Source: a virus
Length of the DNA stretch: 64,000 bases
Reading direction: 5' to 3' (one strand)
IMG/VR virus record: IMGVR_UViG_3300045988_132810
Coordinates: 64,001-128,000 of that record
Shown: one piece after another, positions 39,917 through 64,000 of the stretch
Layout of the letters: each line of letters starts with the position of its first letter
Numbering within the stretch: position 1 is the stretch's first letter
Notes under the pieces: model-generated
Database searches by the model: none
Seen by the model: only the letters and a program-made list of their open reading frames with translations
What the model was told of the DNA's origin: nothing
Translations under genes and position numbers: made by a program

Positions 39917-41047
39917 TTATTTTTCCTCCTTTGCAGGTGGTAATAATTTTGTATTGTTTGAGGAAATAAAGAGTATTTCATAAACCTTGGAGTCAATCAT
40001 GATTTTATATGATTCATCTTTCTCTGCTGTGTATGGAATCGCCAAATAATGATATCCATGAGCTAACGCATATTGTCTTTTATATTCGTCCTTCCATTGA
40101 ATATACTCTAATGATTCTTCTGGAGTCATCTTCATCTTTATGGCATCTTGTTTCACAAAATTCGTTATCTTGAAATGCTGTTCTCCCATTGTCTCAATAA
40201 TCAAATGTAAACCATTAATCAAAATATCATTATCATACGGCATTGGAAAATTAGTTTTTGGATTCTTTGGCAACAAAGAACAATTTCTTTCATGGGCAAT
40301 AGCATATTTGTATTTTTCTGAAATGTACTTTCTTATCTTCTCTTGTAGCCTACTTTCATTCCTTCTTCTAGAGCATTCTGGACATCCATGCCCTCTACTT
40401 CTAGTGTTCGGAGACGATTCCCACTTATGTCCACACGCAGAGCATTTCCACCAATATTTCATGTTAGAACACATAGGAACACTATTTATATCAATCCCGA
40501 CATTCTTTTTATAATCCCATTCATTGATATATTCATGCCCAGAATCTACAATAGAACCCTTTGTAGAAACAATAGTTTTTCTAAGAGAATTTTGTCTAAC
40601 TTTTTTTGCACATTCTGGGCACATAGCCCCGTTAGACCTGTTACTTATTTTTGAATTCCATTTGTGTCCACAAATATGGCACAACCAATTTGCTGCCTGT
40701 CCGGATTTTGCAGTAAAATCTTTTGGAGTCAACCCATTGTTGTTATCATAATCCCAGTCTAGGCAAACCGTTGGATTTATCGTTTGTAAATCATTAAACC
40801 CGACTAGCACCTTCTTCCCGGTACAATATGGACATGAACGTCCACGAGTTTTATCAGCAATTTTCATTTTATATTGATGTCCATAATTACAAACCCAATT
40901 AATCACCTTTCCGGATTTTGGAGCAAAGTCCGATGGCAACATCCCTACATTATTTTCACAATCCCATTCAGAAAGAATATTTTTCTTTTTATTCTGTTCA
41001 CACCATTCATGCAAATTAACTCCAAGTGTCACTACCATTATCTCCAT
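39917..41047 (-). CDS. Triple treble-clef zinc-ribbon protein with C-terminal Vsr/DUF559-like PD-(D/E)xK nuclease module (homing-endonuclease-like)
   Basis: Three copies of the zinc-ribbon unit: INWVCNYGHQYKMKIADKTRGRSCPYCTGKK, ANWLCHICGHKWNSKISNRSNGAMCPECAKK and YWWKCSACGHKWESSPNTRSRGHGCPECSRRR. The C-terminal LIIETMGEQHF resembles the E.dG..H motif of Vsr-like nucleases. Confidence 0.5.
   Translation of the reverse strand: MEIMVVTLGVNLHEWCEQNKKKNILSEWDCENNVGMLPSDFAPKSGKVINWVCNYGHQYKMKIADKTRGRSCPYCTGKKVLVGFNDLQTINPTVCLDWDYDNNNGLTPKDFTAKSGQAANWLCHICGHKWNSKISNRSNGAMCPECAKKVRQNSLRKTIVSTKGSIVDSGHEYINEWDYKKNVGIDINSVPMCSNMKYWWKCSACGHKWESSPNTRSRGHGCPECSRRRNESRLQEKIRKYISEKYKYAIAHERNCSLLPKNPKTNFPMPYDNDILINGLHLIIETMGEQHFKITNFVKQDAIKMKMTPEESLEYIQWKDEYKRQYALAHGYHYLAIPYTAEKDESYKIMIDSKVYEILFISSNNTKLLPPAKEEK
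39945..39958 (-). promoter_or_regulatory. Conserved 14-mer CAATACAAAATTAT (minus strand), copy 1
   Basis: Exact plus-strand ATAATTTTGTATTG. It lies 30 nt upstream of ATG 39914. Confidence 0.5.
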
Positions 41048-41153: not shown

Positions 41154-41182
41154 ATTATATCACAATAATTTTGTTTTGTCAA
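41154..41182 (-). promoter_or_regulatory. Consensus sigma-A/sigma-70 promoter with extended -10
   Basis: The minus strand reads TTGACA-N17-TATAAT, with TG in the extended -10 position (TTGTGATATAATGT). The spacer contains a 13/14 match to the conserved 14-mer (CAAAACAAAATTAT). Confidence 0.75.
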
Positions 41183-45995: not shown

Positions 45996-46021
45996 TAAAA
46001 TTTCTCCTTTTATTCCTTAAA

Positions 46022-46035
46022 ATAATTTTGTATTG
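46022..46035 (-). promoter_or_regulatory. Conserved 14-mer CAATACAAAATTAT, copy 2
   Basis: Exact plus-strand ATAATTTTGTATTG, in the intergenic region 26 nt upstream of ATG 45995. Confidence 0.5.
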
Positions 46036-49789: not shown

Positions 49790-51349
49790 TTAATTGGCCT
49801 TATCTCGTTTATCTATACTGGCCTCACCATCGTCTGTCAAATCACCAAGATCCTTAGTCGGAGCTCCACCAGTATCAGAACTACCAGTTTGAGTATAAGT
49901 GCTTTGTAGTGGTACCATCTTTTCATGAAGCTGCAAAATTTCATTTTCAAGATGCAACATTGAATTCATGTCTAACGGACTAACCCCCATTAAAGCAGCA
50001 AGTTGCGTCTTCATGGGAAGTCCTAATGTACAAGCTTCCTTTACATTTTTAATAACTTCATCTTTCAAATAAGGGCTCACTTGCATATACTTTAAACGCA
50101 TACCATTGTCTGGCAAAACATAATCTAAAAACATATTAACTCTTGCCTCTATTTGCCACAATAGAGGTTTTTGTATGAACAATGCATCAAATCTCATTGC
50201 TGCAGTGACAGCGGTAGAACCAGTCAATTTTGAATTGTCCATAATTTGACTCACGCCCGCAGACTCCCACAAATTCTTATTTGCCTTTGAGATACTATTT
50301 GTCTCATCAGTTGCATCTTTATCAAAAGTAATTGGCTCAATTTTCATAGGAGACAACGCGAGACCAATTTCTTCTGGAAGTATTTGATTGATTTTATTAT
50401 AAAAATCTACTGCCAAATCAAGACTTACTGCAAAATCATCTGGATTGGTAGTGTTGGATAGAGTATCAATCTCCGCAACAAGCAATTTATAAATAGAAAG
50501 TTTATCTTTAACACTTGTAATACCACGAAGGTCAATCAAATCAATAATGTCTTCAAATAGACTAGCAAATGGAGGAATAACCCTATCCAATTGATCATAA
50601 TCCATTTTAAAAACAACTGTTCTTTCTGGATCAAGCTCTGCCCATCTTTGCTTGCTGTCCTTTTGATACGCATTATAACCAGTTGTAAATTCTTTGTCCC
50701 AATAATCAAGATATACTTTATTGGCAGAACTATCAAAATATGAAAAGTCAAATGCACAATTAAGAGTTCCATTATAATTAACAGAACTTATTTTACAATA
50801 ATCTGCATTCAAAGGAACAATTATAAAAGAGTTCCTATCTTGTTCCTCTCCATCTTCATAATAAATATATCCATAGAAGCAATCTTCTCTAAGGCATGCA
50901 GTCAAAATGCCATGAATTTGTCCTTGCATATTCATTTTTTCAATCCACTTTAAAGTAGACTCATAATTCTGAAGAATCTTTTCATCGTCATTGTCCTCTG
51001 TCATAGAGACATTAGGAATCACATTATATGCAGTTAAATCAATATGCGTAGCAAAATATGCAATAATTCTTCTATATTGCGCACTCAAAACGTATAAAAA
51101 TTGGCTTAACTGTCTTAGATTTTTCTGGTTTGTATCAGTAAGTGGGTTCTTTAAATATGTTCTAAGTGAATCCTTAGAATATACTGTATATGTTTTACTC
51201 GGAGGATTTTGTAAATCCAATAATTGCAATGCTGCCTTTGCAGCCTGTTTAAACTGCTCAATTTGCTGTTGTTTAGCGGTGAAATCCGCTATTTCTTTAA
51301 TTGAATGTTCTGTTCCATGAGAAACTGTGTTCTTCTGTTCTGTTGGCAA
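49790..51349 (-). CDS. Portal protein candidate
   Basis: 519-aa ORF immediately downstream of TerL. Size and position are typical of a portal. Confidence 0.65.
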   Translation of the reverse strand: MPTEQKNTVSHGTEHSIKEIADFTAKQQQIEQFKQAAKAALQLLDLQNPPSKTYTVYSKDSLRTYLKNPLTDTNQKNLRQLSQFLYVLSAQYRRIIAYFATHIDLTAYNVIPNVSMTEDNDDEKILQNYESTLKWIEKMNMQGQIHGILTACLREDCFYGYIYYEDGEEQDRNSFIIVPLNADYCKISSVNYNGTLNCAFDFSYFDSSANKVYLDYWDKEFTTGYNAYQKDSKQRWAELDPERTVVFKMDYDQLDRVIPPFASLFEDIIDLIDLRGITSVKDKLSIYKLLVAEIDTLSNTTNPDDFAVSLDLAVDFYNKINQILPEEIGLALSPMKIEPITFDKDATDETNSISKANKNLWESAGVSQIMDNSKLTGSTAVTAAMRFDALFIQKPLLWQIEARVNMFLDYVLPDNGMRLKYMQVSPYLKDEVIKNVKEACTLGLPMKTQLAALMGVSPLDMNSMLHLENEILQLHEKMVPLQSTYTQTGSSDTGGAPTKDLGDLTDDGEASIDKRDKAN

Positions 51350-51366: not shown

Positions 51367-53406
51367 TTAATTAAATAAGCTGCCGGGTTTTTGAGGTGCT
51401 CGAATCTTAAATTGATCAAGCATATTTGCGCTACTAGGGCGCTTCTTATTAACGAGATGATCTCTTCTAAGCAATTGAAGCAAATATGCAGCCATAGCAC
51501 AGACATATGCTCGGTCATCATTAAGTTTTGAGCCCGGTGGGAGATCAAATCTATCACCGCCAGAAGATTGTTTAAACCTATAAATATTAACAAGCTCAGT
51601 TTTCATTGCATCGATTTGCTTCAATGCGATCTCTTCATCTTGATCTAAATTATATTGTTCTCTGACAATTTGAATGCCAGATTTCTCTAATGATTTTACT
51701 TCTTTATCAGTTGGCTCTTTATATCTTGGGATTTTTTCTCCTGTCTTTGTATTTAAATCATACATAACAGTAATGTAACCTCTATTGTCATATTCCATTG
51801 GCCACTCAATCAAATTCATATCCATCATTTCAATAAGAGCTCTAAACATCTCAACTTTATATTTAGTAGGTTGAATAAGTCTCATCTTGTTAGGAATTGC
51901 ATTAGGGTATAGCCTTACTTCCTCTGGACTATATTCTTTATCAATCATCCCCCTATGCATAATGCCATTATCATCTTCCCAGTCTTCCCAAAAAAAGTCA
52001 CTAATGTTAACACCTGCTCCTCCTGAACCCGCATCAATCCAAAATCCTAAAATATTCTCGTAATCGGCAACGCCTTCACCATTATAAGCAAGTAGAAGTT
52101 TTTTTACTTCTTTTATCTGATTTGGCGTGGTCATAGGAGTCTTATGTTTTTTCATGACATTTAATAAGTTAACAACATTTTGTATTTTCATTTTCCAGCC
52201 AACCACTGGATCATCAATATACTCTGCACACAATACGACAGAGTTATCTTTTGCTCTGGCACTATCGAAGAGAAGAGCCCATTTGCTATTTACATCATCA
52301 CTTCTTAATTTTGGAGGACGAGGCACAGAGTTCCTAATAATAGTAGCTCTTTTAATTGCCTGCCCATCTCCGCCTTCAGAAGTAAAAATATTTTTATATT
52401 CTCTTAAAGCAGCTTCCTTATCTTCCCGCATGGCTTGGTCTACCTTTTCTTGTGTCAGAAGAGGAACTGGCCAAATTTTACCATGCATTGTTGCTCCAAT
52501 AACTACATCACTAGAGATGTCTGCACAAAAATATCTTTTATCTCCAGCAAACATTTTAATAGAGAACTCTCTATACTTCTTAAAGAAATATTGGTCTGTA
52601 CGACCTGCTGAAGAACAATATAATAGCTGGTTAGGAAATGGCGTCGGCTCTGCTAATAAATCTTCCGCACTAAACCCCCTACCAGCTTTAAACTCTGAGT
52701 TCTGTGTAGTAAACGGCTCTGATGTATGAAATAATTCATCCGGTGCATTCATCGCCTCATCATATACGTTCAAATTTGAACGCTTAGATCTGTTATTGTC
52801 AAAATTACCATTCAAAGTAAAACATTGAGCTCCACCATAAGTCCTTACCGTATATGAAGCAGGATTATGAACCCATCCATTTGAATTTGCCTGAGATCTT
52901 ACTACATTACTTTGAAAAATATCATTTAAGTTTGTGAATGACGATATGTTTTTCAAAGCAAACGCTTCCATTTTTAGAAACATCTCAATACTTTGCGAAC
53001 CAACGCCTGCAAGGATATATGCCTTAAAATTGGGTATAAGCATCATCTTATCCATAACAAACAAAGATGCTAGAATGCTTTTACCACCATTTCTCGAACA
53101 TGCCCAGACAGAGAATGGAGTAGTCCATGTGGAATCAAAGCAATATCTTTGATAATCTAACAACTGAACATTAAATATCTCCTCAGCAAACCTCGTTGGA
53201 TTTCTTCTTCCCCATTGTAAAAATTCTGCAAGCTCAAGTTTTTCGTTATATTTTTTTGTCGTCATTTCATATAGATTTGGACGAACAAATGGATGGTCAT
53301 ATCCATAGTCTTCAATGATATCATCAAAAGTTTTATAATCTTTAATCAAATCTTCATTATAAAGCAAAATATCACTCATCTTCGACCACCCGACCATTTT
53401 CATCAA
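51367..53406 (-). CDS. terL: Terminase large subunit
   Basis: Walker A-like WACSRNGGKS, Walker B-like LNVYDEA, and a C-terminal nuclease-like region. The protein is 679 aa. The true start may be ATG 53379 (MSDILLY). Confidence 0.85.
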   Translation of the reverse strand: MMKMVGWSKMSDILLYNEDLIKDYKTFDDIIEDYGYDHPFVRPNLYEMTTKKYNEKLELAEFLQWGRRNPTRFAEEIFNVQLLDYQRYCFDSTWTTPFSVWACSRNGGKSILASLFVMDKMMLIPNFKAYILAGVGSQSIEMFLKMEAFALKNISSFTNLNDIFQSNVVRSQANSNGWVHNPASYTVRTYGGAQCFTLNGNFDNNRSKRSNLNVYDEAMNAPDELFHTSEPFTTQNSEFKAGRGFSAEDLLAEPTPFPNQLLYCSSAGRTDQYFFKKYREFSIKMFAGDKRYFCADISSDVVIGATMHGKIWPVPLLTQEKVDQAMREDKEAALREYKNIFTSEGGDGQAIKRATIIRNSVPRPPKLRSDDVNSKWALLFDSARAKDNSVVLCAEYIDDPVVGWKMKIQNVVNLLNVMKKHKTPMTTPNQIKEVKKLLLAYNGEGVADYENILGFWIDAGSGGAGVNISDFFWEDWEDDNGIMHRGMIDKEYSPEEVRLYPNAIPNKMRLIQPTKYKVEMFRALIEMMDMNLIEWPMEYDNRGYITVMYDLNTKTGEKIPRYKEPTDKEVKSLEKSGIQIVREQYNLDQDEEIALKQIDAMKTELVNIYRFKQSSGGDRFDLPPGSKLNDDRAYVCAMAAYLLQLLRRDHLVNKKRPSSANMLDQFKIRAPQKPGSLFN

Positions 53407-54568
53407 TTAAACCTTTTTCTTTTAAAAAGTCTTTTAAATCTTTATTCTCAACAAGCAGCACTCTTGCTCTTTCTACAGCTTTATCTCTTTCTTTTTGTAG
53501 ACTGTCTACTAAGTCTCTTCTAATTCCTTGTATCTCATCCATAACATTTTCATCAAATCCAATTTGGTCAATCTGCGCTTTTGCACTAATTTCCGCAACT
53601 TGTTGCATGCCCCTGCAATAATCAATATCATATGTATTAATTTTTGCATCTCTAAAACCTATTAAGTCTAACTCCCTCATCTTTCCAGTAAGAGTATTTT
53701 GCCCTTTGCTTTTAGAGTTGTTAAAGTTAACGGATATACCATTATCCTTTGCTAATGAATTAGCGCCACTTAATAATTTTGATATTGTGTCTGCATGTTG
53801 CTTAATAATACCATTATTGTTGTTTAATTTTGAAACATTAGAAGAAAGACCATCAATAGCGTCGTTTATTTTTTGTATCTGATTAAAAGCTTTCACTATT
53901 TGAATAACAGCATTCATTTTCATGCCATCATTTTTGGTTTCATCATCAATAAAACTAATTAGCTGCGCATAAAGAACTGGCTTGTCCTCTTCAATTGGGT
54001 AGTTTGCAAACGGATCATATCCAATCATTCTAATTGCATCTTTACGATTAATTGCATACTCTTGCTCAATTTCTCGTTTGCGGTCATCAGTAATAGTATA
54101 TGTATCAGATTTGTCTGATGACAAATCTACCTTTTTTCCTATATCCCCATCATGCCACCTTAACGTCTTATACTGAGGTAATGAACAAATATTTTTAATA
54201 TATGCTTCCCATGTATCTGAATGAAGACTTTTATTGCTAGGGTCATTACTTTCTACATAACTTGAATTAAACAGCCTCTCAAGAAATGGTTTGTCTAAGC
54301 GTTCAAGCGCTTCAACAATTGACTCTTTAGTGCAATCTCCATATCGACCAGTTTTTGCATCATAATTCCTTGCAATTTTTTTTGCGCATTCCTTACACAT
54401 GCTTGTAACACCAGTTTTTACTAACGGATCTGTACTCACATAGTATTCAGACCTTTTCTTCATCGTATTACAATAAGGACAAAGGTAGCTAGGTTCTTCA
54501 ACAATTGGCTTACCAGCTTTTTTTGCCGCAGTCGGTTTTCTTCCAGATTTCTTTGCAGTAGTTGCCAT
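53372..54568 (-). CDS. Basic zinc-ribbon protein upstream of TerL (possible small terminase/DNA-recognition subunit)
   Basis: The N-terminus is Lys-rich (KKSGRKPTAAKKAGKP), followed by CPYC...CKEC. The gene overlaps the terL start. The call rests on position. Confidence 0.35.
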   Translation of the reverse strand: MATTAKKSGRKPTAAKKAGKPIVEEPSYLCPYCNTMKKRSEYYVSTDPLVKTGVTSMCKECAKKIARNYDAKTGRYGDCTKESIVEALERLDKPFLERLFNSSYVESNDPSNKSLHSDTWEAYIKNICSLPQYKTLRWHDGDIGKKVDLSSDKSDTYTITDDRKREIEQEYAINRKDAIRMIGYDPFANYPIEEDKPVLYAQLISFIDDETKNDGMKMNAVIQIVKAFNQIQKINDAIDGLSSNVSKLNNNNGIIKQHADTISKLLSGANSLAKDNGISVNFNNSKSKGQNTLTGKMRELDLIGFRDAKINTYDIDYCRGMQQVAEISAKAQIDQIGFDENVMDEIQGIRRDLVDSLQKERDKAVERARVLLVENKDLKDFLKEKGLIDENGRVVEDE

Positions 54569-54608
54569 CCCATTCTCACTTCCTTTGTATCTTATTGAGC
54601 AGAATTAA

Positions 54609-54833
54609 TTATTCTACTGCTGTATTTTTAGCTGCCTTAATTTGTTCATTGATTTCTGACATCGCCTCGTTAAATTTTTCATCTTTAACAAATACGAATA
54701 CCGTCTTGTCCTTTGGGTTCTCCTTTGACGGCTTTAAATCACAAATAGTACATCCTATTTTAAGAAGATGTCTGGCTATTCCTGCATTAAATACTAATTT
54801 GCAATCATGTTTAATTATTTCTTTGTTTTCCAT
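54609..54833 (-). CDS. Hypothetical small protein (DUF5659-like)
   Basis: 74-aa ORF. The resemblance to the DUF5659 family rests on memory alone. Confidence 0.4.
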   Translation of the reverse strand: MENKEIIKHDCKLVFNAGIARHLLKIGCTICDLKPSKENPKDKTVFVFVKDEKFNEAMSEINEQIKAAKNTAVE

Positions 54834-54919
54834 ATTTTAATTGTCCTTTCCAATTATTTTCTAAATCTTTCCAATAGTTTGTTCATTTTGTACCTCTTAT
54901 AACTATAACTTTGCATTAC

Positions 54920-56116
54920 TTAAAGCTTGATATTATAAGTACAAATTTTACCGTCTTCTTTGTCAAAAATACACAAAGTTTGAGCAGGATTTGCATATAA
55001 TCTTTTATTATTCGCATAATCGTCAGTTCCGCATAAAGAACTCACCATTACGTTATCAATTCCATAAGAATCAATTGTTTCCGAATGATGTTTATCACCA
55101 GAAAATACATACTCAACATCAAGTCCATATTTTTTTCCAAACAATGTGTGCATATCCACGCCAAGCTTCCCAAAGCGTTCTAGATCTCCATGAACCGCAA
55201 CAACATCGTGGTCAAGCACATTAAATGAAATAAACTCATTAATATTGTTGTCTAAAACATAAACTTTCTCATTTTGTGAAAGCCTTTGATTGATCCACCA
55301 TTGAATGATTTTCTCCATATTATCAGAATGAATGCTATCATTCTTGTTTTGAACAGATCTTGCATGATTCCCATATGTAGAATAGACATACACACAATTT
55401 ACGTATTGTGATAATGAGCTAATAAGCTCTGCAAGAAGTTCAGAAACCTCCATTAATTGGTCGCATGTATCCTCTTCTGACGCAACACGTGCACCAGTAT
55501 GTATACACCCATGGATAAAGTCTCCTAAAAGCACAATATGAAGCTTATTAATATTATTTACCCTCAAATACTTAATTGCCTTATTAAATAAAATATTAAC
55601 ACGCTCTACACATGTTTCGACGTCATATTTGTTCCAAATATTATTAGTAACCATGCCATAATGCCAATCTGTTAAAACTAAAACCGCTTCATTCTTTGCT
55701 TCAACAAATGACTCGTTATTAGAATTTAATAATTTACTTGAATTTAAATTGTCTGCTGCTTCAATTAATTTCTCGGTCAGATGTTCAGCTCTTGCATCAC
55801 TCGTTAGCAGCTTATTATATTCTCTTCTTTGATCTTGAAATTGTTTTTTTGCCTTATAAAGTTCATCAGTTTGTCTCTGAATCTCCTTAAGATATTCATC
55901 ATCAGAGAAAACCTGTTTTTCACACGCCTTCAATCCATGTTGAAACATCTGATATTTCTTACGATAAGCACTCTCACCAAAATTTTGGTTTAATGCGGTA
56001 TTAATAATGTCGGCAATTTGCTGCCATGTCATCCCAGAAGACTGCTTCATCGAACAAATTCTATAGATATATTGTTCTTCGCTTTCTTTTTCAGGATTAA
56101 AATTAATTATCTCCAT
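54920..56116 (-). CDS. Calcineurin-like metallophosphoesterase with N-terminal helical domain
   Basis: The ordered motifs LTDWHYG, LLGDFIHG, YGNHAR, VHGD and SGDKHH match the Metallophos signature. Confidence 0.75.
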   Translation of the reverse strand: MEIINFNPEKESEEQYIYRICSMKQSSGMTWQQIADIINTALNQNFGESAYRKKYQMFQHGLKACEKQVFSDDEYLKEIQRQTDELYKAKKQFQDQRREYNKLLTSDARAEHLTEKLIEAADNLNSSKLLNSNNESFVEAKNEAVLVLTDWHYGMVTNNIWNKYDVETCVERVNILFNKAIKYLRVNNINKLHIVLLGDFIHGCIHTGARVASEEDTCDQLMEVSELLAELISSLSQYVNCVYVYSTYGNHARSVQNKNDSIHSDNMEKIIQWWINQRLSQNEKVYVLDNNINEFISFNVLDHDVVAVHGDLERFGKLGVDMHTLFGKKYGLDVEYVFSGDKHHSETIDSYGIDNVMVSSLCGTDDYANNKRLYANPAQTLCIFDKEDGKICTYNIKL

Positions 56117-56128
56117 CTGCTTCGTCCT

Positions 56129-56156
56129 TTCTCTTATATAAAAAAGACGAGGATTA
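56129..56156 (-). terminator. Rho-independent terminator overlapping the HU gene stop
   Basis: The minus strand reads CGAGGA-AUAA-UCCUCG followed by UCUUUUUUAU. Confidence 0.65.
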
Positions 56157-56474
56157 TTCCTCGCCTTCTCTATTACATAATTCTCTAATTTTTAGTTGAT
56201 ATGCCTGTGTAAACTTGGCACGTGGATAAATGTGGTCTTCACTAACTGTCTTTTCGCCAGTTCTTGGCTTAACAGTTTCCTTCCCACCATAAAACTTCGC
56301 CTCAATATTAAGCCCCTCAAATAGTTTAATAACTGGCAAATCATCTGGCGTCGCATGCGATAAAATATCTGTAATTACTGCAAAAGTACCTCTATAAATA
56401 TCCTTTACTGCACCTTGGTAATATCCAGACTCCTTTGCAACCATTTTAACTAGATCATTCTGTTTATAAATCAT
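56154..56474 (-). CDS. HU/IHF-family DNA-binding protein
   Basis: NDLVKMVAKESG...AVKDIYRGTFAVITDIL...IKLFEGLNIEAKF...KPRTGEKTVSEDHIYPRAKF fits the HU fold pattern (beta-arm R..TGE). The protein is 106 aa. Confidence 0.7.
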   Translation of the reverse strand: MIYKQNDLVKMVAKESGYYQGAVKDIYRGTFAVITDILSHATPDDLPVIKLFEGLNIEAKFYGGKETVKPRTGEKTVSEDHIYPRAKFTQAYQLKIRELCNREGEE

Positions 56475-56498
56475 TGTAATCTTCCTTTCTCGTATTTT

Positions 56499-56678
56499 TT
56501 ATCTGATGTCAATAGTTCTTGTAACGGTTAAAGTAATTAATTCACCATCAAGTTCTTTTAATAATTCTGATAGCGAAGCAGTCTTCCCGTCACTAAGAAA
56601 TTCTATCTGTGTATCATTTTTATTAATGTCTAAATAACCACACAATTTAATTTCTGTAGTCTTTAAAGCATCATTCAT
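56499..56678 (-). CDS. Unlisted 59-aa ORF, paralog of the adjacent 62-aa gene
   Basis: Hand translation: MNDALKTTEIKLCGYLDINKNDTQIEFLSDGKTASLSELLKELDGELITLTVTRTIDIR. Its ATG overlaps the upstream TGA (ATGA). It falls below the 60-aa cutoff of the track. It shares the (V/A)SLSEL(F/L) core with 56675..56863. Confidence 0.55.
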   Translation of the reverse strand: MNDALKTTEIKLCGYLDINKNDTQIEFLSDGKTASLSELLKELDGELITLTVTRTIDIR

Positions 56679-56863
56679 GAAAGTTCCTCGCCATATGCAA
56701 TGCTAAGTTTAACATCTTTATCTGCAAAATCTACAAAGAGCTCTGATAGTGATACGACATCTCCCGTATCATCATTTTCAACAAAAACTTCGTCATTATT
56801 AATACGAAGGATCCCACTTGCCTGAATTGTATACTTACTCTGAATCTTAGCTGCCATAATCAT
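56675..56863 (-). CDS. Hypothetical small protein
   Basis: 62-aa ORF with the ribosome-binding site AAAGGAGAAAAATG. Confidence 0.55.
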   Translation of the reverse strand: MIMAAKIQSKYTIQASGILRINNDEVFVENDDTGDVVSLSELFVDFADKDVKLSIAYGEELS

Positions 56864-56887
56864 TTTTCTCCTTTATTGCTTTTATTT

Positions 56888-57601
56888 TTATCCTTGAAGC
56901 TCATCAGCCCAAGAGCTGACAATACCTCTATGATTAGTATTTAGCTCACAAATTTGTGCATAGTCTTTGTCCTTAAAATGCTCAATATATTTTACAAATC
57001 CGCTATTTTCTGGATGATGGTACAAATCACATTGTCCACTATGCCCAATTACGATTGTCTTAGATGTATCAGAAATTCTGGTTAATACTTTTTTTAACTC
57101 ATCAACATACATGTTTTGAGTTTCTTCAATAATAACCACTTTATTTTCTAGGTTGCATCCTCTTAAATAGACGTGAGAGATACAATCAATATATCCAGTG
57201 CCATTCTTTTGGTTTTCTACACCCTCCTGAATGACTGCAGTATATGGGTTAATCCCTAACTTTATCAAAGCATCATATAGTGGAGCGGTATAAATAGAAA
57301 TTTTTTCATCAGCACTGCCGGGAAGAAATCCAAGTTTTTCTTCCTGTACAGGACTAACTATATAAACGATTCCATCATAAACATTATGCTGAACCAAAAG
57401 ATTTGCTGTAGCAACTGCCATTAAAGTCTTACCAGTACCTGCTTTTGCATTTGCAAAAATAATTAACTTTTCTGGATTTAAAATGGCATTTACAAATTCT
57501 TTCTGTTCCTCGTCTAATAAAATACCATAAAATGGATGACCATCAATGTTCTTTGGAACGTCCCCATATTCATTTACAACATTCTTTCTCTTAGTTGCCA
57601 T
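56888..57601 (-). CDS. phoH: PhoH-like ATPase
   Basis: Walker A AKAGTGKT, and VVIIEETQNMYVDELKKVLTRISDTSKTIVIGHSGQCD matches the PhoH (PF02562) core. Start moved to ATG 57601 (MATKRKN), preceded by GGAGG. Confidence 0.85.
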   Translation of the reverse strand: MATKRKNVVNEYGDVPKNIDGHPFYGILLDEEQKEFVNAILNPEKLIIFANAKAGTGKTLMAVATANLLVQHNVYDGIVYIVSPVQEEKLGFLPGSADEKISIYTAPLYDALIKLGINPYTAVIQEGVENQKNGTGYIDCISHVYLRGCNLENKVVIIEETQNMYVDELKKVLTRISDTSKTIVIGHSGQCDLYHHPENSGFVKYIEHFKDKDYAQICELNTNHRGIVSSWADELQG

Positions 57602-57615
57602 ATAGACCTCCAAAT

Positions 57616-58233
57616 TTAAAACAGAACATCTAAATCTGTAATAATCTCGTCAATAATTCCGTTTGCTAGTGCTTCTTCTTCGTCGAGATACCAATCAGAC
57701 GGAGCTTTTCTCTTATATACCTTCGGATCAATCTTTGTATGACCAAGGAAGTATTCAGTGACTCTCTTAGTAAGCTTATCACCAAACTTTTTCATTGATT
57801 CTGCTTGTTCTTGTGTTCCGCCATAATAACAAGATCCAGAATGAACCAGAACAGAAGTGCCCGGAAGTGCATAACGCTTGTGGCCAGCAGACAGGATGTC
57901 TGCAGCAGCAGAGTAGGCACAACATAGATTGATTGTCCAAATAGGCGTTTTGCTAATTTCCATAAGCTTAATAAAACTCCATGTAGCAGACACGTCACCG
58001 CCCGGTGAATCTATCACAATCTTGATTGGTAGACGCTGCTCAATTGGTACGTCTTTATCTTCTCTATTCCAACGAATAATCTCCTTAGACAATTCGAAAA
58101 GATTTTCATCAATCTGCTCGTCAATATAGAGTACACGATGTTCAATGTCTCTATAATAATTTCTTAATTCCGGTGAAGGTAGGTGCAAATTTGCTACTGT
58201 TTCAGGAATTGCTACTAATAGTTCTTGTTCCAT
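57616..58233 (-). CDS. clpP: ClpP-family serine protease
   Basis: IDSPGGDVSATWSFIKLM...INLCCAYSAAADILSAGHKRYALPGTSVLVHSGS matches the CLP_protease (PF00574) pattern. Start moved to ATG 58233 (MEQELL), preceded by GGAGGAATACC. Confidence 0.85.
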   Translation of the reverse strand: MEQELLVAIPETVANLHLPSPELRNYYRDIEHRVLYIDEQIDENLFELSKEIIRWNREDKDVPIEQRLPIKIVIDSPGGDVSATWSFIKLMEISKTPIWTINLCCAYSAAADILSAGHKRYALPGTSVLVHSGSCYYGGTQEQAESMKKFGDKLTKRVTEYFLGHTKIDPKVYKRKAPSDWYLDEEEALANGIIDEIITDLDVLF

Positions 58234-58363
58234 GGTATTCCTCCGTTTCGTTTCGTAGAATTTATATATACATGTGCTGGCATATATATACCATATAGTT
58301 AAAGCTCGACCCAACTTTTTTAGTAGTGGAGTATATAAATGCGTATAATTTTTGTATAAAGCT

Positions 58364-58377
58364 ATAATTTTGTATTG
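58364..58377 (-). promoter_or_regulatory. Conserved 14-mer CAATACAAAATTAT, copy 3 (plus a degenerate copy at 58345..58358)
   Basis: Exact plus-strand ATAATTTTGTATTG in the 160-nt intergenic region upstream of clpP. An imperfect second copy, ATAATTTTTGTATA, lies adjacent. Confidence 0.5.
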
Positions 58378-58395
58378 TTAAAAATGTTGATACGG

Positions 58396-59292
58396 TCATG
58401 ATTTTTCTCTAACTCTCGCCCTATAATTTATATTTTTCTTTACATTCCTATCTCGTTGATGTTGTTTATTACAAGTCGGGCATCTACAAGTATGTGTATC
58501 TTTTATAGGTATTTCAACCTCATCGCCACAATCAATACACCATATGAGTTGTGGGAGAGAAGAAGAGAGTGAACAGGCAGTGCATATGTCATCGCTGGCT
58601 TTGCTTTTCATGAGCCTACCGCAACGAGTACATCTCTTGAATTTTTCTTTTCCCTTCCAATTAAGATATACATACGCAAGCTCTTGACAATCAATCTCAT
58701 TCAAACGAAATACTTCTTCTCCATCTTTATCAATAAAATTAACCCACAAGCATTTTGTATCATTTCGTTTAGGACAACTAATAAGACCTTGAGTAAGAAT
58801 GTAATGTAAAATATATTCTCTATCGTCTGCTGGGACAGAAACTCTAGCAATTTTACACAGCTCTGTAACAGTATACCTTACAAGACCTTCTGTGAAATTG
58901 GCTGAAGTCCCATAGCACTCCATGATTTTTGCTTGTTGCTTTGCCATGCATAAAAGAACAAACAATATTTTTTCAGCTCGTATGTTGTCTAATGATTGTA
59001 TCTTTTCAAGTTCAGTTTTAGTAATAACAACATCATCTATTTTATACAACTTTCTCTTCTTTGCACTTTTAATCGCCTTCGATATAACATTTGAATAACT
59101 AGATTCATCAAAATTATCTTGATGCTTAGTCATCCATGCAACAGTAGAGTTGTAATTTTTACTTTCATCTTTCCCTAAGACTTGTGCATTGTATCTTGTG
59201 ATATATCCAATTTTTTTAATAGCAGACTTTATATCTTTATTTTTGCCTAACAACAAACTTTTGACATATTTTTCTTCATCAAATATCATCAT
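58396..59292 (-). CDS. Hypothetical protein with C-terminal double zinc ribbon, translationally coupled to the RNAP-like gene
   Basis: 298 aa. Zinc-ribbon cysteines: CTRCGRLM...CTACS and CIDCG...CRCPTCNKQ. The start overlaps the 3' end of 59279..62155 by 14 nt. Confidence 0.55.
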   Translation of the reverse strand: MMIFDEEKYVKSLLLGKNKDIKSAIKKIGYITRYNAQVLGKDESKNYNSTVAWMTKHQDNFDESSYSNVISKAIKSAKKRKLYKIDDVVITKTELEKIQSLDNIRAEKILFVLLCMAKQQAKIMECYGTSANFTEGLVRYTVTELCKIARVSVPADDREYILHYILTQGLISCPKRNDTKCLWVNFIDKDGEEVFRLNEIDCQELAYVYLNWKGKEKFKRCTRCGRLMKSKASDDICTACSLSSSLPQLIWCIDCGDEVEIPIKDTHTCRCPTCNKQHQRDRNVKKNINYRARVREKS

Positions 59293-62155
59293 TTACATCA
59301 CCAACTTCCTTAGTACATAAAGAAAATGTCTTTCCGCAAAATTCTATATCACCATTTTCGTCTTTAATGGGGAACTGAATTTTATTACCATTTTTTTGTG
59401 CCACATTACGAAAAATTTGTTCTCCAGCTATATCCCAAGCAAAAGACTTATTTTTACTAGAAGTATAACAAATATCTACTAAAATATTTGCAAGGATTTC
59501 CTCATTTGGACAAATTAAATGACTAGCCATTATAAAATTTTCTTTAATCCCAATTGCGATAATTTCCGCATCCTCATTATTAGTTTCTGTTTTTGACCTT
59601 CCTTTAGACAAAATTAACATTTGCTTTCCATACTCAATATACAAATCATTAATTAAATCAAATTCTTCTTGAGAATACTGTGCATTACTCTTTAAAATAG
59701 ATGCATCAAACTCCACATTAGGTAGAACATTAGTTGTTTGAAACTCATTTTCAATTTTCCAACAAATCCTATTCATTGTACCCGTAGCTCTACTTACAGG
59801 CATATACTTCTCATAATTGTAAATAAAAGCTTCTTCTTCTTCAGTCCTATCATCAGAAGCACATAAATCTTCTAAAGTTTTTCCAAATCTTATCTTACAA
59901 TTTGATTTTACAGACTTCATATATTTATCAAGTTCAGCCTTTAGCTGAGAATACCTATAAATAAAGAACCATGGCTTAATATTTGAAGCGATTCTGGTAT
60001 CAATCTCTTTATCATGTATAACTTCCAGAGAATCACCTGATTTTGACTTATGCATTCTTGCCTCTAGCCATTCTTTTGGCACAGGTTTTGCAATAACCCC
60101 CTTAATGCGATCTATGGCATTTTGCTGATAATTCATCATCGTACTAATACGATAAGTTAATCTCTTATATTCTTCACTGTCTGGATCAAATTTTTCTCTT
60201 AGAGAAATCATATTAGTTGCCTTGTTAGTCACACTACCAATAGAATCTCCAAACCCATTAATATCCGATGTAACGAAATCCTCTTCCGTAGGAACTTTCT
60301 TTGGCATCTTGTCTTGTTCGCACATTAATGTTGGCTTATATTCAAATGCATCAAGAAGCACGTGATTGTTGCTTGTAAAAAAAGTATCAGAGTCGTAATC
60401 AGCCCCATTGCATCTAATAGCAGTAGTGTCCCAGCTATTTAAGAACATGCATGTTTTAACATATCCATACCATTTTTCCATTTCAGGACTAGAAACAACA
60501 TTTAGTTTACAAACATTTTCTATGGATGTCATTGGAGCACGAAATGCACATATCTCTTTTACTCCTTTATCGCTCCAATACTTGTGATAACATTCACCTG
60601 CGTGAAGCAGTCCAGAGATCTCTATCCCGAACATATTTTGAAGCAATGAATATGGATCATTTCCTATAATTGCATAGTCTCCCTCAACATCTAATACACC
60701 TATTTTAGCGGTTCTGATGCGCTTTTGTATCATCCTACTAACTTTAGACCGTACATAAGGATCTTTAATTAATTCAGGATTTGCCATAATTGCCTTACAC
60801 ATTGGATCCATACTATCAACATTTTTGTCATCCAGTCCAGTTCCACACATGTATAAAATTAGTTTTCTCCAATCTAAACCAAGACATTCTTTAATTTTCG
60901 TTACTGTTGGGGCAACCAATTCATTAATTTGTTCATCTGTAAACCTAAAATCTTGTAAATATTGATAGTTTGTAGTGTGAACATTACGCAATTCACGTGG
61001 AGCGCTCTTTGCTATACAAAAATCATAGTCATTTTCCTTACAATTGCGCAAATAATCTTCACATCCTGCATAAGAGTCCCATAATTTTAACATCGAAGTT
61101 GTTAAAATAACATCTGCATTACGAATATCTTGTTTATCTCCCCATGCGTCAGTTATTTCATATGTATGTGCTACTTCCTCCGCAAATTGTACAAAAGGGA
61201 CAGTAAACACCATGCCCTTTAAAAATGCACATCTAGTATTATAACCAGAGAGCGGCTCAGTACCTTCTCCTAACCATTCAGCCCATTTTGAACTCATTTC
61301 TGGAGAAATAAACCCCATTCCGTCAGAAACATTATAGTCAATCTTTTCTTCATGAGGCTCACTAACACTTGGCCAATCAGGATTCTTGTCATTGCCAGTA
61401 TCCTTTACTATTCTTACAGGATAATTAAAATGAGTTTCTGCATCTTTAACTACAATAACTCTTGGCCAAGGTCTTTCAGGATCTGTGAATGAGCCTACTG
61501 TAATACTAGCAGAGCACTGTAGTGCAAAATATGCAGATAATTTTGCTGGGATAAACTTATAATTAAGTTCCATTCCATTGTAAGTTTTAACAGACTCCAG
61601 AAGATTGTTGTTATTATCAACTTTTGGCCCCAAATAACGTCCATTATTAATACGGCGCATAATCTCATCATGCATGTCTTCATTTATGAACATGATTGTG
61701 CTCTTCTTTATAGATCCCGCCGTACCAAGAAGACGAACATAGGTTACTGTTTCTTCTTTCCCATTGCCATAATCAATAGTGATACTAAATTTGTTTTGGC
61801 ATACATACCTATAATCACCCGGAGAGTCCATAACAAGCATCACATAATCCTGCTGAAATTGCTTTTGATACAATTCATTATATAGGGAACAAATCTTCGT
61901 TTTATTTTCATAATTGTTCTCCATTTTCTTTGCGTTTTTAATCTCTGCTTTAATCTCAGTAGCTCTCGCGTCATCTTTTTCTCTATGTTGCAACTTTGTA
62001 AGCCATCTAAGAACCTGAGAAGACCCTAGACTAACGACCATCTGTGGTTGCTTTCTAATCTCACTTAACTTAAAGTCTAAATGCCAATTGTGTTTTGATA
62101 GATACCCACTATGTATTTTTAGCACATAAGTTTGGTTTTTTTGCTGCTTTGCCAA
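59279..62155 (-). CDS. Candidate single-subunit two-barrel RNA polymerase (YonO / cellular RdRP-like)
   Basis: 958 aa with a TTG start. ICAFRAPMTSIENVCKLNVV...AIRCNGADYDSDTFFTSNN (DYDSD at 60386..60400) resembles the universal NADFDGD / DxDGD metal-binding loop, preceded by the RxP...v.vv strand seen in YonO and QDE-1-type polymerases. The gene is followed by HU and packaging genes, as yonO and yonN are in SPbeta. Confidence 0.5.
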   Translation of the reverse strand: MAKQQKNQTYVLKIHSGYLSKHNWHLDFKLSEIRKQPQMVVSLGSSQVLRWLTKLQHREKDDARATEIKAEIKNAKKMENNYENKTKICSLYNELYQKQFQQDYVMLVMDSPGDYRYVCQNKFSITIDYGNGKEETVTYVRLLGTAGSIKKSTIMFINEDMHDEIMRRINNGRYLGPKVDNNNNLLESVKTYNGMELNYKFIPAKLSAYFALQCSASITVGSFTDPERPWPRVIVVKDAETHFNYPVRIVKDTGNDKNPDWPSVSEPHEEKIDYNVSDGMGFISPEMSSKWAEWLGEGTEPLSGYNTRCAFLKGMVFTVPFVQFAEEVAHTYEITDAWGDKQDIRNADVILTTSMLKLWDSYAGCEDYLRNCKENDYDFCIAKSAPRELRNVHTTNYQYLQDFRFTDEQINELVAPTVTKIKECLGLDWRKLILYMCGTGLDDKNVDSMDPMCKAIMANPELIKDPYVRSKVSRMIQKRIRTAKIGVLDVEGDYAIIGNDPYSLLQNMFGIEISGLLHAGECYHKYWSDKGVKEICAFRAPMTSIENVCKLNVVSSPEMEKWYGYVKTCMFLNSWDTTAIRCNGADYDSDTFFTSNNHVLLDAFEYKPTLMCEQDKMPKKVPTEEDFVTSDINGFGDSIGSVTNKATNMISLREKFDPDSEEYKRLTYRISTMMNYQQNAIDRIKGVIAKPVPKEWLEARMHKSKSGDSLEVIHDKEIDTRIASNIKPWFFIYRYSQLKAELDKYMKSVKSNCKIRFGKTLEDLCASDDRTEEEEAFIYNYEKYMPVSRATGTMNRICWKIENEFQTTNVLPNVEFDASILKSNAQYSQEEFDLINDLYIEYGKQMLILSKGRSKTETNNEDAEIIAIGIKENFIMASHLICPNEEILANILVDICYTSSKNKSFAWDIAGEQIFRNVAQKNGNKIQFPIKDENGDIEFCGKTFSLCTKEVGDVNDDI

Positions 62156-62175
62156 TAAATATCACCGCCCTTACT

Positions 62176-62189
62176 ATAATTTTGTATTG
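62176..62189 (-). promoter_or_regulatory. Conserved 14-mer CAATACAAAATTAT, copy 4
   Basis: Exact plus-strand ATAATTTTGTATTG. It lies 20 nt upstream of the TTG start at 62155 and 17 nt downstream of the -10 box of the sigma-A promoter. Confidence 0.5.
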
Positions 62190-62206
62190 CCCTATCGAAC
62201 AAACAC

Positions 62207-62234
62207 ATTATATCACAAAACTTACAAATGTCAA
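62207..62234 (-). promoter_or_regulatory. Consensus sigma-A/sigma-70 promoter with extended -10 upstream of the RNAP-like gene
   Basis: The minus strand reads TTGACA-N16-TATAAT. It shares TTGTGATATAATGT with the promoter at 41154..41182. Confidence 0.75.
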
Positions 62235-62240
62235 GTGCAT

Positions 62241-62897
62241 TTAATCAACAAATGTGTAAACAACCCTCACATCTTCATAATTGCCGCCCTGCGGAACAAG
62301 TTTCACCAGCAGTGGGAGAGAAGTGTCACAAAAAAAGTTACAATATTCCCTACAAGTCTTTGGATCATATTCAACAACAACATAATATTTAATACCTTCG
62401 TCCCTTGGAATGCTCTCATCCAAAATGCCATTCATAACAAAAGAAGTAATTATCTTTTTGTCTTCTCCTGAAATGCTCCTATCCCAACGAGTCGGGGCGA
62501 CACCATCTCTCTTCCAATGCACATAAGCCTTCTCAGGAATACGACCCACATGAGAAATTGTTGCATCCCAATTGTAATTAAGTATTTCATCAAGAGTTAC
62601 ATATGAAGCAAAGCCTCCAAAACGAAAATAATGATTACTCGAAATTGCATCAGATGCATCATCTGGCAAGCCTCGCAACTCACTAATTGGATTAATTACT
62701 GTATAACCATTTAGTTGATTTGTGACCCAACCAAATAACTCATATAAGAAAATATTTCTTTCATCACAAACCCTATCAGTTAATTTATCATTCATTTCAA
62801 TAAATGCGCTTGGAAAAATATTACCAACCTTTTTCCACGCACCATTTTCTCTTACCTCAGCATACATTATCATTTGCATATATTTATCACATCCCAT
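62241..62897 (-). CDS. Hypothetical protein (218 aa)
   Basis: ORF in the packed early operon. The start is uncertain (several in-frame Met codons) and I did not recognise any motif. Confidence 0.55.
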   Translation of the reverse strand: MGCDKYMQMIMYAEVRENGAWKKVGNIFPSAFIEMNDKLTDRVCDERNIFLYELFGWVTNQLNGYTVINPISELRGLPDDASDAISSNHYFRFGGFASYVTLDEILNYNWDATISHVGRIPEKAYVHWKRDGVAPTRWDRSISGEDKKIITSFVMNGILDESIPRDEGIKYYVVVEYDPKTCREYCNFFCDTSLPLLVKLVPQGGNYEDVRVVYTFVD

Positions 62898-63201
62898 ACA
62901 TTTCTTTATACTTATACATTTCTTTTATAAGATCATGAAGACTTGGCATATCTTCTGGTTTAAGATATACAGATTCTGTTAAAGGCACATACGATTGCAT
63001 CACACAAGCATATTGGCACTTATTTGAATCAATACGCATTTTAAAACGCCTGTCTTCAGGAATATGCATATCTTTACCACACCCCGGACAATACGCAAAA
63101 TCTACAACTGATAATGTACCACATTGTGGACACTCTAATAGTTGTGCATTGCCGCACAGAATATTAAACTGCTTTCTTTCAACTGTTTTCCATTCGCTCA
63201 T
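62887..63201 (-). CDS. Zinc-ribbon small protein
   Basis: Start moved to ATG 63201 (MSEWKTVERKQ), which overlaps the upstream TGA (ATGA). Cysteines: CPQCG...CPGCGKDM. Confidence 0.55.
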   Translation of the reverse strand: MSEWKTVERKQFNILCGNAQLLECPQCGTLSVVDFAYCPGCGKDMHIPEDRRFKMRIDSNKCQYACVMQSYVPLTESVYLKPEDMPSLHDLIKEMYKYKEMYGM

Positions 63202-63482
63202 TGTAACGCCTCCAAATCCATTTTTGAACCGCAATTTGGACAATAGTTATGTGGGTCGTGTTTCCACATATCAAACCCGCACTTACATACAGAACAAATT
63301 AGTGTATCTGGCCTGTCTGAATTAGTTTCCCATCTCCCATGCACCACCGGAACCGCATCCACAGTCTGTGCCGCCTCTATTTCAGCCAAACAGTCTTCTT
63401 TTGCCCAGCGCGCTTCCTCGTATGGGGTTGGAACATTGTTCCATATGGCTTCGGACAACTGATCTGCGTTAATCAAACGCAT
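63198..63482 (-). CDS. Zinc-ribbon small protein, paralog A
   Basis: Start moved to ATG 63482 (MRLINADQL). DAVPVVHGRWE...CSVCKCG...YCPNCGSKMD. Confidence 0.6.
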   Translation of the reverse strand: MRLINADQLSEAIWNNVPTPYEEARWAKEDCLAEIEAAQTVDAVPVVHGRWETNSDRPDTLICSVCKCGFDMWKHDPHNYCPNCGSKMDLEALQ

Positions 63483-63765
63483 TACTATCACCGTCCATTT
63501 TCGCTCCACAGTCAGGGCAGAAACTATGTCTATCATCGAATGGATGGCCATCCACATACCCGCACCTTGAACAAACAAACGCCCATTTGTAACCGCTATC
63601 TCCGTTATCAATCCAATGCCCATGTACTACCGGCGCAACATCGGCAAATGGGATACCCAGCAAAGCAGCTTCAAGTTTGTCTGCGGACAAATTTATATCC
63701 GGTGTATCATAGTAAACGTCATTGATGGCATCAATAGCCGTTTTCAGTTCGACATATTTAGTCAT
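63469..63765 (-). CDS. Zinc-ribbon small protein, paralog B
   Basis: DVAPVVHGHWID...CSRCGYV...FCPDCGAKMDG. The ribbon architecture matches paralog A. The ribosome-binding site GGAGGG lies inside the GNAT gene end. Confidence 0.6.
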   Translation of the reverse strand: MTKYVELKTAIDAINDVYYDTPDINLSADKLEAALLGIPFADVAPVVHGHWIDNGDSGYKWAFVCSRCGYVDGHPFDDRHSFCPDCGAKMDGDSNAFD

Positions 63766-63767
63766 TG

Positions 63768-64000
63768 TTAACCCTCCTGCTCAATACTTCTATTACCTGT
63801 CCAATTGCAGTCCACTAACGACATATAATAATATGCATTATCTTCATCTACGACTTGAAATCCGTACTTATCATAAACATGTTTTGCTATAGTGTTACTT
63901 TTCTTTACAGCTAAATTTCTAGCACCACATCGTTTTGTAGCATAATCTAAAAGTTGATAAGATAATCCAAGCCCTTTATAATTTTCACTAATCTCAAGAT
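63768..64000 (-). CDS. GNAT-family acetyltransferase, C-terminal fragment (5' end outside the window)
   Basis: Hand translation: LEISENYKGLGLSYQLLDYATKRCGARNLAVKKSNTIAKHVYDKYGFQVVDEDNAYYYMSL...QEG followed by a stop (TAA 63770..63768). This fits the GNAT motif A/B pattern (..yrG.Gig..Ll......g...l.l.v...N..A...Y.k.GF). Confidence 0.6.
   Translation of the reverse strand, partial: LEISENYKGLGLSYQLLDYATKRCGARNLAVKKSNTIAKHVYDKYGFQVVDEDNAYYYMSLVDCNWTGNRSIEQEG

Follow-up and report, generated by a model that had tools for sequence, protein, structure and literature searches.

Polymerase gene and its host-type promoter

The window analyzed here is a 64,000-nucleotide stretch of viral DNA (positions 64,001 to 128,000 of IMG/VR record IMGVR_UViG_3300045988_132810), and the gene in question lies on its minus strand at 59279..62155, where it encodes a YonO-family single-subunit two-barrel RNA polymerase (RNAP) of a large gut phage. 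The product is very likely a catalytically competent single-chain enzyme, a new member of a known family. As the original prediction had stated, the list of open reading frames (ORFs) gives a protein of 958 amino acids, which contains ICAFRAPMTSIENV and CNGADYDSDTFF with the motifs FRAPM and NGADYDSD. Its TTG start codon is credible because it is preceded by a strong Shine-Dalgarno sequence, AAGGGCGGTGAT, and because homologs share the N-terminus MAKQQKNQ.

Upstream of the gene, at 62207..62234 on the same strand, lies a sigma-A-type promoter (TTGACA-16 nt-TATAAT with an extended -10 TG) that matches the consensus at 12 of 12 positions and is the sole such match in a 9.5-kb scan (54500-64000). 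The consensus host promoter predicted for the gene is thus present. By analogy with SPbeta YonO, the site would serve host RNAP to transcribe the polymerase gene once the phage is active.

Membership of the two-barrel RNA polymerase family

The Pfam family PF05183 (RdRP, for RNA-dependent RNA polymerase) matched residues 259-680 of the polymerase with 46.1 bits against a gathering cutoff of 23.8 (E 4e-12), and a tblastn search against 50,697 phage records returned 43 relatives, including SPbeta yonO (24% identity over the catalytic core, E 3e-11). These two results put the resemblance far beyond chance. Amongst the other relatives were Clostridium phage c-st (38% identity), Enterocloster phage PMBT24 (35%) and Bacillus phage BUCT082 (28%), and annotated relatives are also found in TR-TP1, Perkons and 0305phi8-36. 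The window polymerase and YonO have phrog_8308 in common (E 4.8e-77 and 1220 bits, respectively), and no NCBIfam model matched the polymerase, its downstream partner or YonO. At E <= 0.001 the Pfam RdRP family misses YonO, PMBT24 and BUCT082. Since the window protein passes this test and YonO does not, the gut-phage clade of the window links phage YonO-like enzymes to eukaryotic RdRPs in sequence better than YonO does. Homologs of the polymerase formed 1,651 clusters at 50% identity in an exhaustive search and 3,073 clusters at 90% identity in a word-indexed search, mostly from metagenomic contigs of up to ~165 kb.

Eight residues are invariant across two-barrel RNAPs, numbered in QDE-1 as D709, R738, K743, R962, P964, D1007, D1009 and D1011 (Ruprich-Robert & Thuriaux 2010, PMC2919709). 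All eight are present in the window protein as D278, R308, K313, R539, P541, D586, D588 and D590, with a spacing of 30/5/2/47 compared to 29/5/2/45 in QDE-1, and all are invariant or nearly so in a 106-sequence alignment. The first three belong to the beta-like barrel motif SDGMG ... RCAFLKG (codons D278-K313, 61217..61324, minus strand), which corresponds to QDE-1 D709, R738 and K743 (PMC2919709) and aligns to RDR2 sDGiG...iRygGyKGv; of these three residues, R308 is nearly invariant and the other two are fully so. The beta-prime-like barrel contributes the R-x-P motif within FRAPM (codons R539-A-P541, 60533..60541, minus strand), also invariant in the alignment and equivalent to QDE-1 R962 and P964. 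The metal loop NGADYDSD follows at codons N583-D590 (60386..60409, minus strand), and its Asp triad D586/D588/D590 is invariant. In YonO the equivalent triad is essential for catalysis (PMC5467207). By analogy, the D586-x-D588-x-D590 loop would bind the catalytic Mg2+, with Ser589 in place of the usual Gly.

Searched against the PDB, the family profile matched plant RDR2 and QDE-1 (E 1e-5 to 8e-4), and the profile alignment paired sDGqG, iRnaFiKGm and aGaDfDgDl with the RDR2/QDE-1 counterparts (the DG, R..KG and DxDGD motifs). The PDB copy searched with this profile contained no YonO-family structure. A single-sequence phmmer search of the PDB gave OTULIN as the sole match, which was discarded as spurious; the family profile was needed to reach remote homologs.

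Predicted fold

An AlphaFold2 model of the polymerase built from a diverse alignment had a mean predicted local distance difference test score (pLDDT) of 92.6 and a predicted template-modelling score of 0.90. It shows two beta-rich cores, at residues ~268-352 and ~489-612, which hold the two motif sets. The structures found by Foldseek with this model were, at the top, maize RDR2, QDE-1 and Arabidopsis RDR2 (E 4e-16 to 5e-12, template-modelling (TM) scores 0.35-0.48, ~750-980 aligned columns), followed by the Thermus-phage single-subunit RNAPs P32 gp64 and P74 gp62 (E 4e-5 to 1e-4) and, as weak matches, the beta-prime/Rpb1 subunits of cellular RNAPs (E 0.02-0.3). The viral models of BFVD added phage 'RdRP' models, P23-45 gp64 and crAss-like RNAPs. 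A two-barrel fold is thus predicted with high confidence from the beta-rich cores, the motifs and the Foldseek matches, rather than from strand-by-strand topology. Altogether, the Pfam match, the eight invariants, the model, the Foldseek results and the homology to YonO bear out the single-subunit two-barrel RNAP of the original prediction, and none of the outcomes named in advance as refuting it turned up where computation could reach them.

The eukaryotic enzymes QDE-1 and RDR2 share with the window protein the DG / R-x4-KG / R-x-P / DxDxD motifs at the same spacing. They differ in sequence (~10-14% identity) and in that they copy RNA for silencing, while phage YonO transcribes DNA. The Thermus phage P23-45 gp64 family (PDB 8f72, 8f5m) and the crAss-like virion RNAPs are likewise two-barrel single polypeptides with a role in phage transcription. 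Their structural match is weaker (E 4e-5 to 1e-4, TM 0.2-0.4) and they have no detectable sequence likeness to the window protein, as separate lineages.

The zinc-ribbon partner protein

The gene directly downstream of the polymerase (58396..59292, minus strand) encodes a partner protein of 298 amino acids belonging to phrog_30716, which is common to CST177 of c-st and to the downstream ORF of BUCT082. Its start lies 14 nt before the polymerase stop codon, and it carries two Cys4 ribbons that are strictly conserved in homologs, in line with the earlier proposal that the polymerase gene is translationally coupled to a zinc-ribbon protein. Identity to the equivalent ORFs of PMBT24 and TR-TP1 is 20-27%.

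For the comparison of gene order, 80 related IMG/VR loci were found with a 13-sequence alignment, with polymerases 37-93% identical to that of the window. A partner homolog lies directly 3' of the polymerase on the same strand in 78 of the 80, and the other two end at a contig edge. If the longest ORF is taken, partner gene and polymerase stop overlap in 76 of these 78 loci, most commonly by 4 nt. One Cys4 ribbon was present in 47 partners and two in 29, and the sampled C-termini end basic. The two families are also alike in size (2,597 partner matches and 3,073 polymerase matches), and the partner-profile search mostly returned the same gut clade.

A likeness to the SPbeta zinc-ribbon context had also been proposed, and this holds in part: the window has a separate ribbon protein, whereas SPbeta has none and instead carries the ribbon fused to the C-terminus of YonO. 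The C-terminal 40 residues of YonO (CCICGK...YCQSCGKK) fall in phrog_32573, as do the c-st and BUCT082 partners, and hhalign aligned this tail to the partner profile with a probability of 92% (E 7e-7), which indicates that the ribbon is homologous. The window polymerase itself has no such ribbon, which sits on the partner together with extra domains. The fusion of the ribbon module to the polymerase is seen in SPbeta and Perkons, and its occurrence as a fused module there and as a separate one in another lineage speaks for partner and polymerase being linked physically or functionally.

The AlphaFold2 model of the partner (pLDDT 87.4) consists of a helical N-domain, a beta-alpha-alpha-beta-beta unit (~137-197), the two ribbons and a basic C-terminal helix. 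In the model, the ~137-197 unit has an order of elements typical of a winged helix. The combination of a winged helix with a zinc ribbon recalls TFE/TFIIE-like initiation factors, a likeness that is architectural only. The partner could plausibly be a dedicated DNA-binding cofactor of the polymerase, most plausibly one for promoter recognition or initiation, and we put this forward as a tentative assignment. Weighing against it, Foldseek gave no significant match for the partner (best E 0.11), so that the winged-helix call depends on the order of secondary-structure elements in the model and on weak matches, nearly all of them to winged-helix proteins. No significant likeness to TFE/TFIIE, TFB or sigma was detected, with TFIIE (7o72_W) and sigma-B (8x6g_H) appearing only among the non-significant matches, and the partner matched no Pfam or NCBIfam family.

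Two database labels touch on this protein. CST177 is annotated as 'YonO C-ter' and is actually a homolog of the partner. Additionally, the nr record of P0277, a partner homolog of 82% identity, is labelled 'MAG TPA: DNA-directed RNA polymerase' and has no polymerase domain; this label probably arose automatically, on account of the zinc ribbon, and it was given no weight.

Candidate regulatory elements around the two genes

A 16-mer, CAATACAAAATTATAG, occurs in two exact copies on the minus strand, one downstream of the -10 box and upstream of the ribosome-binding site (RBS) in the 5' leader of the polymerase (62174..62189) and the other 19 nt past the partner stop codon (58362..58377). Degenerate copies are located at 54903-54918, 46020-46035, 41163-41178 and 39941-39956, also on the minus strand. 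Every copy is on the coding strand, either intergenic or at a gene end, and often just 5' of an RBS. In close relatives the 16-mer is found at the same positions, with 28 copies on the coding strand compared to 3 on the other. Across somewhat more distant clades the copy in the leader and the one after the partner vary in step (ACAAAGTGATT, CAAAATGATTGGA and GAAAATGCTA), and this covariation suggests that a rapidly evolving phage factor recognises the element.

The master repressor of SPbeta, MrpR, binds the 15-bp SPBRE at several promoters, one of them that of yonP, directly 5' of yonO (PMC10516654). SPBRE and the leader 16-mer are alike as repeated intergenic elements of about 15 bp that also stand at the promoter of the polymerase operon (yonP-yonO in SPbeta). 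By this analogy of layout, which is the best one for the leader copy, the leader 16-mer might be an operator for a lysogeny repressor, a reading that we regard with some doubt; a promoter or an RNA signal are other candidate functions. The operator reading is weakened because most of the 16-mer copies have no evident sigma-A promoter alongside. A further difference from SPBRE is that all copies in the window are on one strand. The ending ...TATAG of the 16-mer also brought a T7-like promoter to mind, which was set aside as a superficial likeness without support.

The second element is AT-rich and contains TATG. In the window it reads TCGAGCTTTAACTATATGGTATA, lies after the partner gene at 58287..58309 (minus strand) and is unique. 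In most loci the partner gene is followed first by a GC hairpin and then by an AT-rich element such as TTGATGAGGTGCTATAATGAAAGGAAATATA or TCGAGATTTTCCTAATGGATAGTATAC, and BUCT082 has the same layout. Expectation-maximisation on 63 non-redundant post-partner regions gave the consensus gAtTTtTTAtTATGAAaGGAAA with a log-likelihood of 205, compared to 65-77 for shuffled regions. The element was also considered as the RBS and start codon of a small ORF; this was rejected for most loci because the next gene starts 40-80 nt later with its own RBS.

YonO transcription in SPbeta starts upstream of yonK, and the founding study left the promoter sequence and the cofactors open (Forrest et al. 2017, PMC5467207). 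When a position weight matrix of the TATG element, trained with SPbeta left out, was run over the 13-kb SPbeta locus (L001), its best match (13.6 bits, L001 8848) fell in the yonN-yonK gap, in which P_YonO had been mapped with primers that bracket L001 ~8884-9125. The gap holds the TATG-bearing TTCATTTATGAAGG at L001 ~8862, and the midpoint of the P_YonO amplicon is a second core copy, GTCATTTATGAGGG, at L001 ~9015. These observations make the TATG element a possible promoter of the YonO class for the phage polymerase, a role that we consider doubtful at present. Two points limit this reading: the published SPbeta start site (2225998, strain 168) could not be placed on L001, and the motif is AT-rich, partly -10-like and RBS-like in its 3' half, which also confounds its strand bias in the window.

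RNA motifs are present in relatives. The 1.7-kb non-coding yonN-yonK stretch of the SPbeta type contains the Rfam DUF3800-VIII RNA motif (L001 9982-10047; BUCT082, L004 8632-8697), and in c-st a RAGATH-18 RNA lies directly 5' of the HU gene (L002 11965-12025). A scan of the window with Rfam returned zero RNA families.

Taken together, partner and element could also be explained without reference to the polymerase, if the partner were an independent, co-transcribed DNA-binding regulator and the downstream element an ordinary host sigma-A promoter. The absence of any significant structure or family match between the partner and a transcription factor fits this explanation, as does the lack of the partner's N-terminal domains in SPbeta YonO, and TGCTATAAT, the form that the element takes in some clades, is a textbook extended -10. 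Such independence is difficult to reconcile with a gene adjacency that is invariant, and accompanied by gene overlap, in loci down to 37% polymerase identity, or with the fusion of the ribbon module to the polymerase in two phages. Moreover, conservation of the element extends downstream of its -10-like part, and a conserved -35 at the right distance is lacking. We consider an unrelated regulator possible but on the unlikely side.

Downstream gene module

Past the TATG element the genes continue on the polymerase strand. A ClpP-like protease gene (57616..58233; Pfam CLP_protease E 2e-22; phrog_94, head maturation protease), whose ATG at 58233 has an RBS, probably opens the late transcription unit downstream. 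It is followed by genes for a PhoH-like ATPase (56888..57613; Pfam PhoH E 1.9e-36), a small YonK-family protein (56675..56863; phrog_8651 E 3.3e-5; same family as SPbeta YonK, E 3e-32), an HU-like protein that is the counterpart of YonN (56154..56474; Pfam Bac_DNA_binding, 24.2 bits for a cutoff of 22.4) and a YonJ-like metallophosphoesterase/exonuclease (54920..56116; phrog_284 E 6.9e-66; same family as SPbeta YonJ, E 4.8e-75). The HU gene is syntenic in SPbeta, c-st, PMBT24, BUCT082, TR-TP1 and Perkons, and the module of HU, YonK and YonJ is present in ~65-70 of the 80 related loci. Further along, a portal gene (49790..51349; phrog_2739, E 2.5e-104) and then tail genes continue on the same strand, all of the genes above being on the minus strand.

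The gene context had been predicted to resemble SPbeta yonO-yonN, and the resemblance proved more extensive, since YonK-like and YonJ-like genes are present too. The HU and packaging genes expected after the polymerase were recovered in part: HU and portal are there, and the terminase is unconfirmed. A 679-amino-acid ORF (51367-53406, minus strand) occupies the syntenic position of the large terminase and has Walker-like segments that align to the PMBT24 terminase. It has no Pfam or NCBIfam match, and its BLASTP comparison with the PMBT24 terminase was non-significant (E 0.18).

On the other side of the polymerase, three small overlapping or adjacent ORFs (62887-63243, 63198-63623 and 63469-63765, all on the minus strand) end in CPxCG zinc-ribbon motifs. 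A VVHG(R/H)W motif is common to two of them, suggesting a small family of paralogs.

Compared to SPbeta, the window thus has the same eight invariants, a host-type promoter and the same module of polymerase, HU/YonN, YonK, YonJ and structural genes on one strand. YonO is shorter (839 amino acids compared to 958) and has the loop QFDNDGD where the window has NGADYDSD. The window has neither a yonP-like upstream ORF nor the 1.7-kb non-coding RNA region before yonK, and ClpP-like and PhoH-like genes are inserted in its module. The closest cultured relatives are c-st (CST179/CST178), PMBT24 and BUCT082, which align over the full length and keep the order polymerase-partner-HU; they differ in their hosts and in their metal loops, as described below.

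Role of the polymerase

YonO is a processive DNA-dependent RNAP, and 37 SPbeta late genes are silent without it (PMC5467207). Judged by homology and gene order, the enzyme of the window most likely has the late-transcription task of YonO. As a DNA-dependent RNAP it would transcribe the same-strand late operon, from the ClpP-like, PhoH, YonK, HU and YonJ genes through portal to tail. Weighing against this role, the preference for a DNA or RNA template is not readable from sequence, and several database records name relatives 'RNA-dependent RNA polymerase'.

Such labels raise the alternative that the enzyme copies or amplifies RNA, for regulation or defence evasion, rather than transcribing phage DNA. 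The Pfam family bears the name RdRP, homologs in PMBT24, TR-TP1 and Perkons are annotated accordingly, the closest solved structures (QDE-1 and RDR2) are RNA-templated, and the window protein outscores YonO against the eukaryotic RdRP profile. However, the labels come from the Pfam name and not from experiments, and YonO, the sole characterised phage member, is a processive DNA-dependent enzyme needed for late genes (PMC5467207). The gene also heads a long late-gene array of a double-stranded DNA phage, with the same module as in SPbeta. An RNA-templated role is therefore very unlikely.

A role in DNA replication or repair, for example the primase-like synthesis of RNA primers on single-stranded phage DNA, is highly improbable. 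QDE-1 can use single-stranded DNA templates (PDB 7y7r, 7y7t), and the neighbors of the polymerase include the HU-like protein, the PhoH-like ATPase and the YonJ-like exonuclease. Against this, searches of Pfam, PHROG, NCBIfam, PDB sequences and Foldseek gave no match to primase-polymerases, archaeo-eukaryotic primases or other DxD enzymes, the best remote homologs being QDE-1/RDR2 and phage two-barrel RNAPs instead. Additionally, the SPbeta YonO knockout lost late transcription (PMC5467207), and the module lies directly 5' of structural genes.

Metal-loop variation and insertions

The Ser at position 4 of the metal loop (residue 589) had been presented as a notable variant of the usual Gly, and this was not sustained. 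Amongst the 135 representatives with an intact Asp triad, the position is occupied by G in 97, S in 13, F in 8, Y in 8, A in 3 and L, M and T in 2 each, so that Gly accounts for 72%, 38 of the 135 are without Gly and Ser is found in ~10% of family clusters. The nearest neighbor of 12 of the 13 Ser clusters carries Gly or Ala, which implies that the switch to Ser happened repeatedly. Close homologs of the window polymerase have DYDSD in 119 of 120 cases and DYDAD in the remaining one. Elsewhere the loop reads DNDGD (SPbeta YonO and Perkons), DFDGD (PMBT24 and TR-TP1), DTDGD (0305phi8-36), DFDYD (BUCT082) and, after intron removal, DMDGD (c-st), and the published family signature is DXDXD (PMC7824862). 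Since position 4 is not among the invariants, the signature leaves it free and Ser and Gly forms are interspersed, Ser589 is, on the evidence of these alignments, an ordinary, tolerated polymorphism and not a distinguishing feature.

In several relatives the polymerase gene is interrupted, mostly within this loop. The c-st gene (L002) has a 317-nt insert without an ORF (L002 7672-7988) between DMD and GD, which matches the full length of the Rfam Intron_gpI model at 25.4 bits (E 1.6e-4), under the gathering score. Its removal restores DMDGD; U is the last base of the 5' exon and G that of the insert, and the c-st homolog is annotated as separate N- and C-terminal proteins (CST179/CST178). Three close relatives (L025, L027 and L045) have a ~995-nt insertion precisely between D586 and Y587 (NGAD|YDSD), and the two of these that were read, L027 and L045, each encode a 221-amino-acid HNH endonuclease. 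In a fourth, L024, an HNH-encoding insertion of ~965 nt lies between I681 and D682 (QQNAI|DRIKG), beside the invariant D682/K685 motif. The insertion-bearing close relatives are at 73-81% identity. Additionally, six gene calls among the representatives stop at the first or second loop Asp. In the window the gene has no such interruption, and the loop is intact at 60386-60409. Homing-endonuclease elements typically persist in functionally constrained genes.

That the change from Gly to Ser cripples or re-tunes catalysis, leaving the window enzyme degenerate or functionally shifted, is scarcely credible: Gly predominates, and cellular RNAPs (NADFDGD) and QDE-1 (DYDGD) have it as a fixed residue, but Ser recurs in divergent clusters alongside six other residues, nearly all close homologs keep DYDSD with the eight invariants intact, which points to purifying selection, and the homing-endonuclease introns of relatives sit in the metal loop itself.

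As a separate observation, the window contains a free-standing HNH/homing-endonuclease-like ORF among the structural genes (39917-41047, minus strand; phrog_559 E 8e-24). Upstream of this ORF stands a promoter-like site, TTGACA-17-TGnTATAAT, overlapping one of the degenerate 16-mer copies.

Implications for YonO-type polymerases

No simpler relatives of cellular RNA polymerases are known than the YonO-type enzymes, and the founding study explicitly left open how these find their promoters. The clade to which the window belongs is very large (~3,000 protein clusters), comes mostly from gut phages and is poorly annotated or mislabelled 'RdRP'. On catalysis it brings nothing new, the Ser variant being ordinary. 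Its interest lies in the genes and elements around the polymerase. We speculate, with considerable reservation, that YonO-type polymerases outside SPbeta are two-protein holoenzymes, in which the partner would act as initiation or specificity factor, its ribbon would dock on the polymerase (to which it is fused in SPbeta) and initiation would take place at T-rich...TATG(G/A)A...ATA at the head of the late operon. If true, the RdRP/YonO branch of two-barrel polymerases would thereby gain its first defined initiation factor and its first defined promoter class. The partner, the TATG element and the 16-mer are testable candidates that make promoter recognition by YonO-type enzymes experimentally approachable.

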